Shown here piece after piece: positions 4,641 to 13,558 of a stretch of DNA of 13,618 nt (within the stretch, counting starts at the first letter, position 1; each line of letters begins with the position of its first letter). The translations under genes were made by a program, and so were the position numbers. The DNA comes from a virus (lineage: Duplodnaviria; Heunggongvirae; Uroviricota; Caudoviricetes): IMG/VR virus record IMGVR_UViG_3300028532_000077, one strand, 5' to 3'. The notes under the pieces are model-generated. The model worked only from the letters and a program-made list of their open reading frames with translations, was not told the origin of the DNA and ran no database searches.

Positions 4641-5672
4641 TTACGCAGCAGATCCGAAGATGATAGCTTGCGGAATGTTGTTTACTGGCAGATAAGATGT
4701 CTCAGTAACCACAGATGGGAATTGGAATTCATCCTTGATTAGATATTGGTGATGCAACACGGCATCTTGACCTAACTCAGCATGACGCACACCAACGCCG
4801 CTATGAAGCTGGTAACACTGTGCCGCTTTATCCATTACCGGAACAATTGCGAAACCGTTCTCTCCGATGTGAGCAACAATCTCAGGAAACATTGACACAT
4901 CAATAACAGTGATCCCACCAATCTGGAAAGAGTCATAGGCTGGGTTAGAATCAACCATACGGGTAAACAGGGCCGTAGCACTCGCATCACCTGCATATTT
5001 CACCATGTCACTGATCAGCGGGTTAGATGACAAACCATCAGCAGCAGCGCCAGCAGCAAAGATAATTACACCAGTTCGCTTTGCAGCAAGACCAGACCCC
5101 AGCTTTTCACTCTGTAAGCGCACCGCTTTACGAATAGCAAGGAACGGGTTAACAGTAGTCGATGCAAAGTCGATAGCGGGTACCGTGGTTTTAGCCTGAC
5201 CGTCGAGGAAGTCGAGATCACCTTGTCCGGCATATTCAGATTCAACTTTCAGTCCCAGCAGCGCGGTAATCAGATCCACTTCAACACGGTTTGCGTGTGA
5301 ACGGTAATGAGCCTCAGAGAAATCATTAACCGCTACCAGCATAGCATCAGAACGGTTTGGATATTGGCGGCTGTATTGTTCCAGGTCACGAGAAGTAACA
5401 GCGTTAATACTGCCGACGTGTTTCATCTGGAAAAGTTTGTTTGACCATTCCTGACGTTTAGAAGCGTTCCAGTCGCTTTGAGCGTAAGGCGAGGTTTCCC
5501 CGGCTACCTGCACAAACTGCTCAATCAGGTCGGTAAGAAGAATGCTGTTTTCTGTATGATATTGCACATCGAACAGATCGAGATTAGTAATCAGGGTATT
5601 AAGTGCATTCTCATAAGCAAATGGAGTTACTACCGCAGTATTAACGCCAAAATATGTTGATAAATCATTCAT
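4641..5672 (-). CDS. Putative major capsid-like protein (343 aa)
   Basis: Size and position match the major capsid gene of lambda-like head modules (about 340 aa, immediately after an about 120-aa gene); AAGGAAAATAAT RBS; mixed alpha/beta composition with no nucleotide-binding or catalytic motif. Assignment is from context only. Confidence 0.6.
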   Translation of the reverse strand: MNDLSTYFGVNTAVVTPFAYENALNTLITNLDLFDVQYHTENSILLTDLIEQFVQVAGETSPYAQSDWNASKRQEWSNKLFQMKHVGSINAVTSRDLEQYSRQYPNRSDAMLVAVNDFSEAHYRSHANRVEVDLITALLGLKVESEYAGQGDLDFLDGQAKTTVPAIDFASTTVNPFLAIRKAVRLQSEKLGSGLAAKRTGVIIFAAGAAADGLSSNPLISDMVKYAGDASATALFTRMVDSNPAYDSFQIGGITVIDVSMFPEIVAHIGENGFAIVPVMDKAAQCYQLHSGVGVRHAELGQDAVLHHQYLIKDEFQFPSVVTETSYLPVNNIPQAIIFGSAA

Positions 5673-6074: not shown

Positions 6075-6272
6075 TTATTTTCCTTTCAGTTGTTTAATTT
6101 TAGATTTAAGGGCATCAGCAAGACTAACCGCATCAGCCGATTTAAATAATTGAGCAGTGGTAGAACGAAGACTTTCGGGAGTAACTCCCAACAGTGCGGC
6201 AACCTTAATGAGGTTTTCATCACTAACAATCATCGTTTCCCCGTCTTTGCTGATAATCATTTCTTGTTTCAT
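6075..6272 (-). CDS. Small hypothetical protein (65 aa from ATG 6272; ORF open to 6314)
   Basis: First gene of the leftward virion-like operon; AGGAA 8 nt upstream of ATG 6272; stop is 4 nt before the next start; the longer ORF start at 6314 would run into an upstream hairpin. Confidence 0.55.
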   Translation of the reverse strand: MKQEMIISKDGETMIVSDENLIKVAALLGVTPESLRSTTAQLFKSADAVSLADALKSKIKQLKGK

Positions 6273-7266
6273 AAATAACGTTCCTGTTAGTGCCAGACAA
6301 ATAAAAAGCCCCAATGCCGTAAGAGGTTAATTCTGACCAGCAAAGGGGCTTTAACGTGCGGGCAATTACATAATTGATAAGTTAAACTATAAGAGGATTA
6401 AACATATCAGCAAATACACTTTTTAAATATACTTGATGATATGCTTAAAGAGTGAATATCAGACCTTAGAAAGGAAGGCTCTTAGGAGTTTGCCACTGGA
6501 ATCACTAAGATCTGATATTCTGGGTGCGGTGGCTAACCGCTGCCTGTTTTTGCTGTGGATGCAACAAAGTAAGGCTTTAAGGAATCACTATTCCAATTCT
6601 CATCTACTCACAGATCAAATTTTAATAGGATTAACTACACCAACAATAATCTACCGTTTCAGAAAAAGCGTTTTTACAACCAAAGATTATAGATTTGCAG
6701 TCTATAAAACCCGTTTTGCTATCAATATTTCCAAAGGTTATTGCACAATTCTTAGCTAAACTCTCTACTTGCGGCTAACGCTACGCAGATGATAGTTTTT
6801 TGACAACAACTTAATAGATTATTCTGTTACTAACTTCTGTCATTAAATAAGAGTTTAATGATGTTAGTAAATAGTTATAAAATATAACTATCAGTGTAAG
6901 GCTCTTTAATGTTTTCGGACAAAATAAGGAGCTTTAGGATAAGCATAGATGAAAAATAAGAGCGGGAAGGGCAAGGAGATAACACCTACCCGCTTTTATC
7001 AAAATTAAGCACAATGCCTAACAACATTCATCAACACAACGTAGAAACAATCAACAATCAAAGAGGGAGTTATGATTATTCTAAAACTTCTTGAGAGATG
7101 GAAGGTAATATTTGTTAGAGGTTAATGCCACTCAACCCTTGAGGCTATCACCTTCCATATGCAGGGATTTATGACAGTAGAAGGATTAACACCAGTCAAA
7201 ACCTTTTTATCTACCCCTAATATCATTATATAATGAAATCGCTATAAATGCAAATGATTTTCATTG

Positions 7267-7575
7267 TCATTTAGAGAAAATAGCACTTTTTGCTAAATCA
7301 TCTACTAATTGCTGAATCTCTTCACTTGCAGCCTTTAACGTGCTGGCGGTGTCTGTGATGGTTTGAGTACACAGCCTGACATCGTCCTTAGATAGCTCTA
7401 AATCGCTCACCAGAGAGATGAAATCGTCAAGGCTTACATTCACCTTCATTAAGCTACTAACGCATTGAGAGAGCGTGTAATCGCATAAATCTGAATAGGC
7501 TTGATTGATACGTGTCTGTAGGGCGATCATCCGATCCGAAAGAGTGTCCATAACTTCCAGAATGTTGTCTGTCAT
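7267..7575 (-). CDS. Hypothetical small acidic helical protein (102 aa)
   Basis: ATG overlaps the stop of the upstream ORF (ATGA coupling at 7572-7575); AGGAG upstream; no motif recognised. Confidence 0.65.
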   Translation of the reverse strand: MTDNILEVMDTLSDRMIALQTRINQAYSDLCDYTLSQCVSSLMKVNVSLDDFISLVSDLELSKDDVRLCTQTITDTASTLKAASEEIQQLVDDLAKSAIFSK

Positions 7576-8378: not shown

Positions 8379-9047
8379 TTAGAATGGTATTGAATCGTAT
8401 ATTTCACTTTTTTCTCTTAGAGATATTATCAGATCGTGAAAAGCCTGTTTCTCAAGATAGATATTCTTTGAATCTAATGCTCGTTTTACAAAATCTTCTG
8501 TTTCTTCGTGCGGTGGTTTCTTCTTATCAAGGGAAAGAAGCCAAGTAAAAATTTCGGGCCGCTCAGGGAACTCTGATTCCTGTGTTTCTTCTTCAATGAT
8601 GATTTCTGAAACATTCAATATTTCATTAGATTCGTCTTCTTTCTCAGAAGGATCAGGTAGTGATGACTCTCCAGGGGGAGTAATATGTGCATCTGTGAAT
8701 GGTAATGCTTTATAGAGTGATGTTTGCCCGTCCCGAGCCTCTACAGAAAGAACTCCCATATCAACAAACATATTTATAATATTGCGAACCTGGCGATCAC
8801 TAACCATTCCAATATTAGATAATGTTTTTTGAGTGGCGTAACATTCTTGCCCTTGTTCATTGAATCCAGCTATATAGCTATAGATTTCAACGGCTGGCAG
8901 TGTAGCGGTGTATTCATTACCTGACGGTGAGAACCACTTTTTAAACATCTTCAACCACTGCTCAACGACTACATATTTTTGTTTACCATCTTTCTGATTT
9001 AGACATTTGGCTTTCGCTTCGGCAATTGTTTTGATATTTTTGATCAT
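8379..9047 (-). CDS. Winged-HTH DNA-binding protein (222 aa), candidate replication initiator or regulator
   Basis: Strong AGGAGG RBS before ATG 9047; segment YATQKTLSNIGMVSDRQVRNIINMFVDMGVLSVEARDGQTSLY has the pattern of a winged helix-turn-helix; acidic C-terminal tail (EDESNEILNVSEIIIEEETQESE). Confidence 0.75.
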   Translation of the reverse strand: MIKNIKTIAEAKAKCLNQKDGKQKYVVVEQWLKMFKKWFSPSGNEYTATLPAVEIYSYIAGFNEQGQECYATQKTLSNIGMVSDRQVRNIINMFVDMGVLSVEARDGQTSLYKALPFTDAHITPPGESSLPDPSEKEDESNEILNVSEIIIEEETQESEFPERPEIFTWLLSLDKKKPPHEETEDFVKRALDSKNIYLEKQAFHDLIISLREKSEIYDSIPF

Positions 9048-9171
9048 TTAGTTCCTCCTTTGTAAGGACTGTAATTAGTAATTCATTAACAAGTTTTGGA
9101 ATTGATTTCCCTTCTGCCTTTGCACGATTTAACAACGCGTTATAAGTTGCAGAATCAAAATTAATATTCAT
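8983..9171 (-). CDS. Ribbon-helix-helix (CopG/Arc-like) DNA-binding protein (62 aa)
   Basis: MNINFDSATYNALLNRAKAEGKSIPKLVNELLITVL fits the beta-strand then two-helix RHH pattern; GGAGAAGGAG RBS; 3' end overlaps the start of the wHTH gene by 65 nt in another frame. Confidence 0.65.
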   Translation of the reverse strand: MNINFDSATYNALLNRAKAEGKSIPKLVNELLITVLTKEELNDQKYQNNCRSESQMSKSERW

Positions 9172-9194
9172 TTGGTTTTCTCCTTCTCCTGTTA

Positions 9195-9371: not shown

Positions 9372-9494
9372 TAATTAACCTCCTATTCTATTTGGTTAAA
9401 AGAAAAAGACACCTTGCAAGCCTCTTGGGCTTCAAAGTGCGGTGCATTGGTTTAATTATTTAGAGGATAGGAATGTTTTCCTGCCCCTAATATT

Positions 9495-9523
9495 ACTTTA
9501 CCATAACTAAAGGCTTTTGTCAA
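9495..9523 (-). promoter_or_regulatory. Candidate sigma70 promoter for the leftward regulatory operon
   Basis: On the minus strand: TTGACA (9523..9518), 17-bp spacer, TAAAGT (9500..9495); about 120 nt upstream of the GTG at 9371. Confidence 0.4.
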
Positions 9524-9787
9524 CCCCCACCCATAAAATATTGATCATTTTTCAGTATGTTATGATTTTGCTTAGCAATTCGTGCTCTTCTGTGTGATGC
9601 TATTCTTCCTTATTCTCTAAAACGCGTTCTAACGAGGTTTTGATAAAAACAATACATTCCCTTATGTAATGACAGTTTAGCTCGCCTACGGCTTGATTTA
9701 AGCGGTAGAAACTTATTTAACCTTCAACTACTAAAACCATTCTTTTTTGTTTGTTGTTGGTTGTTGTCTGTGTCTATGTGCTAACAT

Positions 9788-10060
9788 CGCTAACGCGTAG
9801 CACACAAGGTTATTGCACTCGTCAGAGTATTGCACAATAGATTTTCTCTTAAATAGATTGATGATCGTTAGATTGGCGTAAGCCTCATCAATGGAACTAT
9901 TGAAGCGCACAGCGCATAGACACTAACAACCATTCGCTTACGCTCAGGTTATTGCACAAGTAAATTTCAATCGTTAGATGGTAGTTAGTTAATTATCGTT
10001 CTGCGCACAGCGCAAGACTATTTAGCCTTACGCAAGCCGTAGGCTATTTGCACATAGTAG
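9788..10060. repeat. Modular imperfect tandem duplication (about 100-bp period) with recurring short motifs
   Basis: TCGTTAGAT at 9865 and 9971; GCGCACAGCGCA at 9905 and 10003; GGTTATTGCAC at 9808 and 9947 with variants at 9827 and 10043; GCTAACGC at 9788. Confidence 0.6.
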
Positions 10061-10200
10061 ATTACATATTCGTTGTGAGCGGCATTAGCGAACATAGATC
10101 TACTAACTAACATCAACAAACAAAAACTATGTGTTATGACAAGCAGTCTAACGACTAACACTCTAACTTGTGCAAGGTTCTGGCGAATGCCAATAGATTA

Positions 10201-10235
10201 AGGGATAGTCGTTAGACTCCCTAACGGGTATCCCT
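10201..10235. repeat. Nested perfect inverted repeat (stem-loop)
   Basis: AGGGATA gt CGTTAG actcc CTAACG gg TATCCCT: outer 7-bp and inner 6-bp perfect stems; followed by about 60 bp of AT-rich DNA (10236-10295). Confidence 0.6.
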
Positions 10236-10295
10236 ATAATTATTCTTATAAAGATAAAAAAGAATTATATTATATAGTTTAATTGTAGTATTGTC

Positions 10296-10394
10296 GGAAA
10301 TCATTTCCTAGGTGATAGGAACTCATTTCCTAGGTAGGTAGGAAACCACTTCCACGGTTATTTCCTAAATAGATCGGAACTCATTTCCCAGGTG
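10296..10394. repeat. Iteron-like array: four 19-bp direct repeats, each with internal dyad symmetry
   Basis: GGAAATCATTTCCTAGGTG (10296), GGAACTCATTTCCTAGGTA (10318), GGAAACCACTTCCACGGTT (10341), GGAACTCATTTCCCAGGTG (10376); spacing 22, 23 and 35 bp; each copy contains GGAA-N5-TTCC. Confidence 0.7.
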
Positions 10395-10860
10395 TTATTT
10401 ATACTTATCGGGTATCAGACTTGATAGGGGTAGCTCACAGTGACCTACCGTTACATCCAATCATCACATAACATCTGTGCAATGATCTTCTAAAAGTGTT
10501 TCTTGCTACCAAAATTAAACATCTAAAACAGGCTTAAATTCAATGTAATTGATGATTAATCCCTGTGTAATTCCTACGTAAAAATCCAATGAAAAGTAGC
10601 TTAAAAAGTGCAATGTTAGCTTTCTTCACTTTTGCGTCATCATCAGCAAAGCCTTATGTTATGCGGCATATAGCGCATCACTGCAAAATTGTTGCTCAAT
10701 AAACGTTCTATCATTTGTCGAACAAGTTCTTTCACGTGTTGAAAATTTATGTTTAAATTTGCTTTCAATCTTTAATGTGCAATCACTATCAACATAAAAA
10801 TAAAAAACCTTCTATTATATTTCATAGCATACAAAAGTCAATAGAAGCCCTCTCGTGCTC

Positions 10861-12873: not shown

Positions 12874-13481
12874 CGTGTGCCTCTGTATTCATATGAAAAT
12901 TAACAAGTTACATACTACACAGGGAGACTACGCATAAAACACAATACAAGTAAAGATACATTTTCAAGACAATAGGAGCCATAAAGCGCCTTTGATGGGC
13001 TACCCCAAAAAATAAGCGCCGTAGGCGTATCCACTAAAAAGGGCTTTTTCACAAAAGCTATGAAGTCTTAGCAGTTCTTCTCTTATCAGGCACCCGTTGT
13101 ACTCCGGTGGACGAAACCGTGCTAGAGCTTGATTCTTTCCCGATCAAGTTAGGTTTTGAAGAGGTGGGCTTTAATCCACTATGCACTTAAAACTACTCTT
13201 CCCATCATTTAGCCTGTTTATCCTCTGCAACGTCATCTCGACGTGTAGCATCATTGGACACCGCGCCAGGTGTGGAACATCTTGCTAAGAGTTTTGGTAG
13301 AAGGTTTAGAGACGGTGGCACGTCTTCCAGCTTCAAAGGAACTTGTTACGAGGTTGAGCCTGGGAACTACTCGCCCATACGTGTTACACTACCAAAGCCC
13401 ATAACAACGTATAGGCGTTTGTAAGTGATAACAGAAGATACAATTTCTTAGAGAAGCTAAGCTAAGTTATTGATTTTCTTG

Positions 13482-13501
13482 ATGGTGCCGATAATAGGAG
13501 T
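13482..13501. repeat. attR-type direct repeat overlapping the tRNA-Thr 3' end
   Basis: Identical to 112-131. Confidence 0.8.
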
Positions 13502-13558
13502 CGAACCTACGACCTTCGCATTACGAATGCGCTGCTCTACCAACTGAGCTATGCCGGC
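13483..13558 (-). tRNA. tRNA-Thr (anticodon CGU)
   Basis: Reverse complement is GCCGGCATAGCTCAGTTGGTAGAGCAGCGCATTCGTAATGCGAAGGTCGTAGGTTCGACTCCTATTATCGGCACCA: 76-nt cloverleaf with D-stem GCTC/GAGC, anticodon loop TTCGTAA (CGT), T-stem GTAGG/CCTAT with TTCGACT loop, encoded CCA. Confidence 0.93.

Follow-up and report, generated by a model that had tools for sequence, protein, structure and literature searches.

The DNA analyzed here, a stretch of 13,618 nucleotides (the window) from the IMG/VR virus record IMGVR_UViG_3300028532_000077, contains a mobile island of ~13.4 kb inserted at the thrW tRNA-Thr(CGT) gene of Escherichia coli (tRNA at 13483-13558, minus strand). Direct att repeats at 109-136 and 13479-13506, which match the 3' part of this tRNA, bound the island, and in complete genomes its neighbors are paoD on one side and proA on the other. 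With the sole exception of the integrase, all its genes are on the minus strand. Our subject is a long intergenic interval at 6273-7266, which extends from the ATG of a gene for a 65-aa protein, the first of the structural operon, to the stop codon of a gene for a 102-aa protein (7267-7575). As the flanking genes are on the minus strand, the interval is situated 3' of the latter gene and 5' of the capsid/tail operon, the position upstream of virion-like genes in which the original prediction had recognized a non-coding control region. Sequence comparisons offer good support for viewing it as a transcription unit comprising a promoter, an untranslated RNA, and a terminator. We further regard it, with moderate confidence, as a control region that separates the early/replication genes of a satellite-like island, integrated at thrW, from its capsid-tail operon.

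Between 6250 and 7300, open reading frames (ORFs) are short, apart from one of 108 aa at 6433-6759 on the plus strand. The earlier judgment that this frame is due to chance and that the interval is non-coding holds up well: among 26 distinct E. coli alleles the frame is intact in just one, the window itself, and broken in the other 25; its product has no Pfam or PHROG match; and the alleles tolerate indels of 1, 2, 6, and 7 nt in the interval. PGAP annotates nothing there in any listed genome. At full length and 87-99% identity, the never-annotated interval is found in 271 of 5,426 complete E. coli genomes (~5%). The stretch from 6764 to 7354 is 95-99.6% identical across 10 diverse E. coli loci, against only 63-75% for the adjoining structural genes, and is the most conserved part of the 3.2 kb compared, with mosaic gene alleles on its flanks. 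The first 450 nt of the predicted transcript, in particular, are near-invariant in E. coli even where divergent alleles have replaced the flanking genes. Such conservation beyond that of the neighboring genes is the opposite of what is expected of a neutral spacer. Hence, a decayed gene or neutral spacer with motifs arising by chance, an explanation that would suit the AT-richness of the interval (33-39% GC) and the presence of the 108-aa frame, is very improbable, the more so as the interval is kept in every related island across genera and displays covariation.

These related islands, sought with the capsid-like protein as an anchor, occur in at least seven other enterobacterial genera—genomes of Citrobacter, Kluyvera, Buttiauxella, Phytobacter, Scandinavium, Kosakonia, and Raoultella—and on many metagenome contigs. 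Synteny is kept in them, and the counterparts of the 102-aa and 65-aa genes are 558-1002 nt apart in 74 loci from Citrobacter, Kluyvera, Buttiauxella, Phytobacter, Scandinavium, and metagenomes. The 37 non-redundant leaders that we compared have a constant layout, namely a promoter just past the upstream gene, a long untranslated stretch, and a hairpin with a U-tract. At the sequence level, the E. coli leader is barely alignable with those of other genera, and the only blastn match to the latter (7203-7275 of the window, E = 6e-7) runs from the end of the 102-aa gene through the promoter into the bases transcribed first.

The 102-aa gene, the last of the early/regulatory block in the ORF list, codes for an acidic helical protein that is "hypothetical" in its RefSeq relatives and has equally placed homologs in other genera. 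Its stop codon is 12 nt ahead of the −35 of a near-consensus sigma-70 promoter, which lends comparative support to the proposal of a late promoter in this region. Defining such promoters by hexamers near TTGACA and TATAAT with a spacer of 16-18 nt, the promoter scan identifies TTTGCA (7249-7254) and TATAAT (7225-7230) on the minus strand, 18 nt apart and matching the consensus at 10 of 12 positions, with the −10 hexamer inside the palindrome TCATTATATAATGA (7220-7239). A score of at least 10/12 recurs in 33 of the 37 leaders, 10-45 nt past the upstream stop codon, the usual form being TTGACA-17-TAnAAT, often with a TGn extension. We predict that this promoter is probably strong and that transcription starts at the A at 7218 on the minus strand, 7 nt past the −10. 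The initial transcribed sequence TA(t/a/g)(a/g)GG, at approximately +1 to +6, is conserved, with A2 present and no T at position 6.

Several features of the promoter are reminiscent of operators. A Fur-box-like 19-mer at 7250-7268, a candidate operator overlapping the −35, matches the 19-bp consensus at 15 positions in the window and 16 in most E. coli alleles; no other site in the window reaches 15/19, and the number of such sites expected in a shuffled window is 0.12. In Citrobacter-type leaders, the same place holds a 15/19 match of different sequence, and leaders of other lineages lack one. A TAAC-N6/7-GTTA dyad occupies the spacer/−10 region in about half of the 37 leader promoters (L012, L019, L054-L089), which suggests an operator for a dimeric regulator. 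Control at the level of the promoter, to which the −10 palindromes and the Fur-box-like sites of two lineages could contribute, is thus a possibility.

At the proximal end of the interval, the 8-bp inverted repeat that had been reported there proves to be real, with its arms one base away from the positions first given (AAAGCCCC at 6305-6312 and GGGGCTTT at 6345-6352). It forms the outer stem of a longer hairpin followed on the minus strand by a U-tract, and is best interpreted as part of a terminator and not as an operator. This predicted intrinsic terminator (6297-6352, minus strand) has a GC-rich, interrupted 13-bp stem, AAAGCCCC..UGCUG/CGGCA..GGGGCUUU (6305-6352), and immediately thereafter the U-tract UUUUUAUUUGU; it was missed by the scan tool because of its long loop. 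Its stem (helix 40) has two compensatory pairs among the E. coli alleles. Each of the 37 leaders closes with a GC-rich hairpin and a U-tract, and the first structural gene starts 25-75 nt later. The stem of the hairpin is lineage-specific: GGGGC/GCCCC, GGCGAC/GTCGCC, AGCCCC/GGGGTT, GCCGAC/GTTGGC, and GGGCTAC/GTAGCCC. The control sites anticipated for this region would therefore include a conserved terminator that incorporates the inverted repeat. In the window, the U-tract is followed 25 nt later by the ATG (6270-6272) of the first structural gene (6075-6272, minus strand). The promoter scan finds no promoter-like site in these 25 nt, which hold the ribosome-binding site; hence, transcription of the capsid-tail operon must pass the terminator. 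Separately, the scan tool called a terminator-like hairpin on the plus strand at 6526-6543, for which helix 33 of the minus-strand RNA is the better explanation.

The predicted untranslated leader RNA (6297-7218, minus strand) measures ~920 nt, counted from the putative start through the last base of the U-tract of the terminator. Folded from 7220 to 6290, it has a minimum free energy of −254.4 kcal/mol, with z = −8.8 relative to dinucleotide shuffles, compared with −225.2 kcal/mol and z = −3.6 for the opposite strand. For the alignment of the 26 distinct E. coli alleles, RNAalifold gives a structure of 314 pairs, with 99.0% of the cells paired and 21 pairs in which both sides have changed; slid controls have 0-3 such pairs, and 0 of 500 shuffles reach this level. 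Compensatory changes beyond the controls are found both in this alignment and in that of the relatives described below. The 5' 450 nt are too invariant for a covariation test in E. coli, and the few changes seen there convert G-U to A-U or C-G to U-G, so that pairing is kept only in the minus-strand RNA. The suggestion that the region might specify a non-coding RNA hence finds support, in that the 0.9 kb between promoter and terminator appear to form a strand-specific structured RNA backed by covariation.

The predicted fold begins at the putative +1 with a 5'-terminal hairpin, AGGGGUAGAU...AUCCCU (7163-7218, minus strand as for all elements that follow; helices 1-3), in which one-sided changes (columns 70-72 with 77-79) keep G-U/A-U pairs valid only in the minus-strand RNA and whose 5' arm is a sequence block conserved across genera. 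It is followed by a long hairpin at 7098-7158 (helices 5 and 6), with a 13-bp outer stem, AUGGAAGGUGAUA/UAUUACCUUCCAU, and a 7-bp inner stem, which is invariant in E. coli and has a CU-rich single strand after it. Further along is a GC-rich bipartite hairpin, AGCGGG.../...CCCGCU (6955-7000; helix 16), followed by CUUAUUUUUC; it is the positional counterpart of a covariation-supported long hairpin in other genera. Located ~270 nt into the leader and not called by the scan tool, it is a possible internal terminator, and termination there could release a short RNA corresponding to the invariant 5' domain. The hairpin UAAAGCUCCUUA.../...UUAAAGAGCCUUA (6897-6936; helices 17 and 18) is the positional counterpart of a boxA-like AAGAGCA/UGCUCUU hairpin of the relatives and precedes two AU-rich hairpins (6871-6891 and 6827-6870; together 6827-6891, helices 20-22). 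A small hairpin with a GUUA tetraloop, GCG-UA-GC-GUUA-GC-CGC, is at 6771-6786, and leaders from other genera share a conserved CC-GUUA-GG hairpin. The strongest cases of covariation in E. coli are the terminator and two further hairpins: a 16-bp one at 6454-6520 (helix 34), with two fully compensatory alleles, 8 of its 16 pairs changed on both sides, and 100% of the cells paired, and a 23-bp one at 6398-6448 (helix 37), with 3 pairs changed on both sides and 99% paired.

Leaders from the other genera tell a comparable story with quite different sequences. In nine of them, the sense strand has z-scores of −6 to −14 and is always more stable than the antisense, by 13-43 kcal/mol. A mid-leader domain recurs in the non-E. 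coli leaders, composed of three hairpins: a long bipartite one that bulges by 6-7 nt on its 3' side, the AAGAGCA/UGCUCUU hairpin, and the CC-GUUA-GG hairpin. RNAalifold returned no structure for a MAFFT alignment of all 30 non-E. coli leaders, because hairpins replaced in a lineage-specific manner misalign; block-wise folding and alignment to a covariance model were used in its place. A covariance model of the mid-leader domain, R1, recovers 17 divergent leaders, and in their alignment, which was made to the model itself, 94.7% of the cells are paired and 29 of 40 pairs are changed on both sides; none of 500 shuffles reaches this, and slid controls are 36-56% paired.

Two short motifs had been described as common to the interval and the other large non-coding region of the island. 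The first, the 14-mer AGGTTATTGCACAA at 6735-6748 (core GTGCAATAA on the minus strand), indeed occurs again at 9946-9959, with two-mismatch copies at 9807 and 9824, and four sites were reached in 0 of 200 shuffles. The second, GCTAACGC, is likewise shared, recurring at 9789-9796; its copy in the interval is at 6774-6781, not 6775-6782 as had been stated, and corresponds, as reverse complement, to the loop and stem in the GUUA hairpin. As two copies appear in 7 of 200 shuffles, this second motif is weak evidence alone. The 14-mer is probably a protein-binding site; its copy in the leader is altered in 15 of the 26 alleles, deleted in one (L009), and appears to be dispensable. The region with which these motifs are shared (9372-10860), right-most in the island layout, is non-coding and ori-like, with four 22-nt iterons at 10292-10393, three copies of the GTGCAATAA(cct) core at 9807-9959, further TTGCACA-like repeats, several inverted repeats, and the sequence of a CGC-GUUA-GCG hairpin on the minus strand at 9788-9797. 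It is probably a replication origin.

In an alternative reading, which the protein-site-like 14-mer shared with this ori-like region would suit, the interval acts at the level of DNA, either as a packaging (cos/pac) site or as a conserved recombination linker between modules, its RNA structure being incidental. An island with no recognizable terminase would need a packaging signal matching that of its helper, and the concentration of conservation in 6764-7354, between mosaic gene alleles, would suit either role. Yet the G-U pairs that the substitutions preserve are valid in the minus-strand RNA alone, folding of the sense strand is in every case better than that of the antisense, and stems have been replaced between lineages by different but complementary sequences. 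Further, in blastn of the interval against 50,697 phage records, nothing matches at E <= 1e-5, and what appears at E <= 10 is noise; a lambda-type cosN is absent within 1 mismatch (matches with 2-3 mismatches are at chance level); and many alleles have an altered or deleted 14-mer. The strand-specific covariation and the lack of similarity to phages thus disfavor a packaging role, and we consider this alternative as a whole improbable. A short DNA site, including cos/pac of other types, could be embedded within the leader.

The RNA does not belong to any family that we could recognize. A covariance-model scan had been proposed as a check, and against Rfam 15 at E <= 1 it returns for the window only the tRNA-Thr and two sub-threshold chance matches. 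Scanning five related loci at E <= 0.1 gives nothing in the leaders. Accordingly, GOLLD, ROOL, HEARO, OLE, raiA, and all other Rfam 15 families have no match in the leader of the window or those of the relatives, and the C4/CI antisense RNA models (RF01695 and RF01394) have none in the window (E <= 1) or the five related loci (E <= 0.1). A TPP riboswitch at the edge of the Buttiauxella locus L013 (11420-11504) belongs to a host gene unrelated to the island.

In a rival reading, the RNA itself is the main product, a free-standing structured non-coding RNA of 0.55-1 kb acting in trans on, for instance, transcripts or proteins of the helper phage or the host or on particle assembly, with control in cis secondary and the terminator merely setting its 3' end. 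Its length and structure are conserved well past the needs of a promoter-terminator switch, the near-consensus promoter is probably strong, and the 5' 450 nt in E. coli resist change despite the divergent alleles around them; given the absence of an Rfam match, it would be a new class. Against this, the terminator abuts the first structural gene in every lineage, a fixed position favoring control in cis, no complementarity to other parts of the island was found, and the strong sequence difference between genera would be unusual if a conserved partner had to be recognized. We therefore think this rather unlikely as the primary role, while noting that action in trans and in cis are not mutually exclusive. 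Somewhat less doubtful, and still only a tentative proposal, is that the interval encodes a new large (0.55-1.0 kb) multi-hairpin RNA class, specific to an undescribed family of satellite-like islands of Enterobacteriaceae that carry capsid and tail genes, and that this RNA has its own function in addition to stopping transcription. A strong promoter would produce it in the resting state, and it might, for example, sense or bind a helper-phage factor and thereby switch the polymerase to a terminator-resistant form, or act in trans on the helper.

The reading that we favor, and which we consider reasonably probable, is that the interval is a control leader for the late operon and that the virion genes are expressed only when the polymerase reads through the terminator. 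Transcription of the minus strand would start at ~7218 from the strong sigma-70 promoter just past the 102-aa gene, and the polymerase would make a densely folded untranslated leader RNA of ~0.9 kb before reaching the intrinsic terminator at 6352-6297, 25 nt short of the first structural gene. Most transcripts would end there in the resting state, and perhaps some at the internal hairpin near 6950, so that the non-coding RNA is made and the virion genes are off. They would be turned on once the polymerase has acquired resistance to the terminator or gets past it by other means, the trigger possibly being a factor encoded by the island or the helper phage that acts on the promoter-proximal region or the leader RNA. 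In enterobacteria, long untranslated transcripts are targets of Rho and are protected by boxA (PMC7665894). As such RNAs are Rho substrates unless protected, the heavy folding of the leader may shield it.

A number of observations weigh against this model of read-through control. The promoter, the start site, and the terminator are calls made from consensus and comparison only. Conserved structure over 0.55-1 kb is more than a simple promoter-terminator switch requires, and the excess in length and conservation may point to a further function of the RNA itself. No clear sigma-dependent pause element is present, the initial TAnnGG having no T at position 6. The flanking proteins have no function assigned by Pfam, NCBIfam, or PHROG, and no homolog of Q, N, or another antiterminator was identified among them: in particular, the 102-, 90-, and 127-aa proteins encoded upstream have no match in these databases that would mark an antiterminator of the Q family, a search of PDB sequences with the neighboring small proteins for an antiterminator or regulator gave nothing usable, and an AF2 model of the basic 127-aa protein, built with 14 homologs, was unusable (pLDDT 52.7).

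An antitermination site of the N/nut or rrn type would be expected to have a boxA (GCUCUUUA...) in single-stranded form and a boxB hairpin beside it. Exact GCTCTTTA occurs in the middle of the leader, at the aligned position, in about half of the 30 leaders from outside E. coli, and one-mismatch variants in most of the others; this boxA-like (C/U)GCUCUUUA is followed by the small CC-GUUA-GG hairpin. The GCUCUUUA of the relatives, however, is paired inside a hairpin whose covariation alters the octamer, and the window has only GCUCCUUA, a one-mismatch version of boxA, on the other arm of the hairpin. Finally, R1 has no significant match to the window even with filters off, its sole alignment (E = 0.11) being to the GUUA hairpin at 6771-6786. 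Hence, the homology of the E. coli leader with the others rests on synteny, the shared layout, and short collinear blocks, and we make no claim that the E. coli type is a member of the family defined by that model.

Among known systems, the late region of phage lambda offers the closest parallel in arrangement: there, the stop codon of Q is followed 43 nt later by PR', which directs the synthesis of 6S RNA up to the large-loop terminator tR', in a leader of ~600 nt before gene S. In both cases, a strong, constitutive-looking sigma-70 promoter is positioned tens of nt past the last early gene, the first late gene is preceded by an untranslated leader and an intrinsic terminator with a large loop, and the late genes have no other promoter. 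The island differs in having no Q homolog or clear −10-like pause element, and its leaders begin with TA(t/a/g)(a/g)GG, in contrast to the initial transcribed hexamer AACGAT (A2, T6) of lambda. Its terminator is at the end of a ~0.9 kb leader, as opposed to ~190 nt from the start, and dense structure with covariation, as seen in this leader, is not known from that of lambda. Moreover, this is a 13-kb island without portal, terminase, or lysis genes.

A second comparison is with the immunity leader of satellite P4 (the PLE transcript, giving CI RNA, to which the C4 and IsrK RNAs are related), where a constitutive promoter produces an untranslated leader whose structure governs premature termination. 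The two share an untranslated structured leader that ends ahead of downstream genes in a phage satellite. Unlike the P4 leader, that of the island has no match to the Rfam C4 and IsrK models, precedes virion genes rather than controlling replication genes, is several times longer, and has no internal complementarity of the seqA/seqB/seqC type that we noticed. Systems based on Nus factors and boxA or on N and nut (lambda nut, rrn operons, and CRISPR leaders) resemble the island in the long untranslated RNA and, in the relatives, the (C/U)GCUCUUUA with its small hairpin. In the relatives, however, the boxA-like octamer is the arm of a hairpin and is changed by covariation, the window has just the one-mismatch version on the other arm, and termination by Rho is the main target of Nus complexes, whereas the island has a conserved terminator of the intrinsic kind. 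The large RNAs of phages and prophages, GOLLD and ROOL, and the other giant non-coding RNAs OLE, HEARO, and raiA are comparable in their 0.5-1 kb of dense conserved secondary structure and in their association with a phage-related, tRNA-integrated mobile element. The island RNA is set apart from them by the lack of an Rfam match, its enterobacterial hosts, its poor sequence conservation between genera, and its fixed, terminator-ended position directly upstream of a structural operon.

Beyond the leader, small ORFs separate the ori-like region from an HTH/replication-initiator-like gene (8379-9047, minus strand; identified by family searches), between which and the interval are the three small minus-strand genes for proteins of 127, 90, and 102 aa. 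Two stretches, 8635-8952 and 9019-9185, inside the HTH/replication-initiator-like gene and an adjacent 62-aa ORF, have 93-98% DNA identity to lytic Justusliebigvirus (phi92-like) coliphages, namely muut, inny, Mt1B1_P17, and PaulScherrer. This similarity speaks for a recent exchange and could hint at the identity of the helper. Downstream of the interval, the structural operon runs on the minus strand from 6272 down to 1626, coding in order for the 65-aa protein, a 127-aa protein, the capsid-like protein, a second 65-aa protein, a TMP-like protein, and a Dit-like tail protein. The capsid-like protein (4641-5672, minus strand) is of the lambda gpE family: it has a weak PHROG match itself, and relatives 44-48% identical to it carry PF03864. 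At least two alleles, only ~56-83% identical, exist among the E. coli islands, and tblastn against the 50,697 phage records finds no match at E <= 1e-3. No portal, terminase, or lysis genes are recognized in the gene set of the island. Insertions of IS1/IS3 truncate or interrupt the island in some strains (L005, which is E. coli HH107; L004; and H35), and two of these provide natural mutants of the leader, with IS1 inside it in H35 and its distal half replaced by an IS insertion in L005.

Nearly all genes of the island are "hypothetical" in RefSeq, our literature searches turned up no description of it and nothing specific on a comparable leader, and it fits none of the satellite families that we found described. 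Phage satellites time the building of particles by signals from the helper phage, and the known switches are either protein activators, such as P2 Ogr at the promoters of P4 and the late activators to which SaPIs respond, or the small P4 CI RNA. Here, the genes for capsid and tail appear to be gated by means of a very long leader of conserved structure and a terminator, in an element that ~5% of complete E. coli genomes carry and that several further genera share; the leader is a candidate new RNA family. If this is true, it would add a new RNA family to the catalog, offer a handle for finding the trigger, and hence the helper, of an uncharacterized satellite family, and provide a compact natural case of long-range termination control in enterobacteria. 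More generally, large "empty" intergenic regions can be the most constrained parts of mobile islands.

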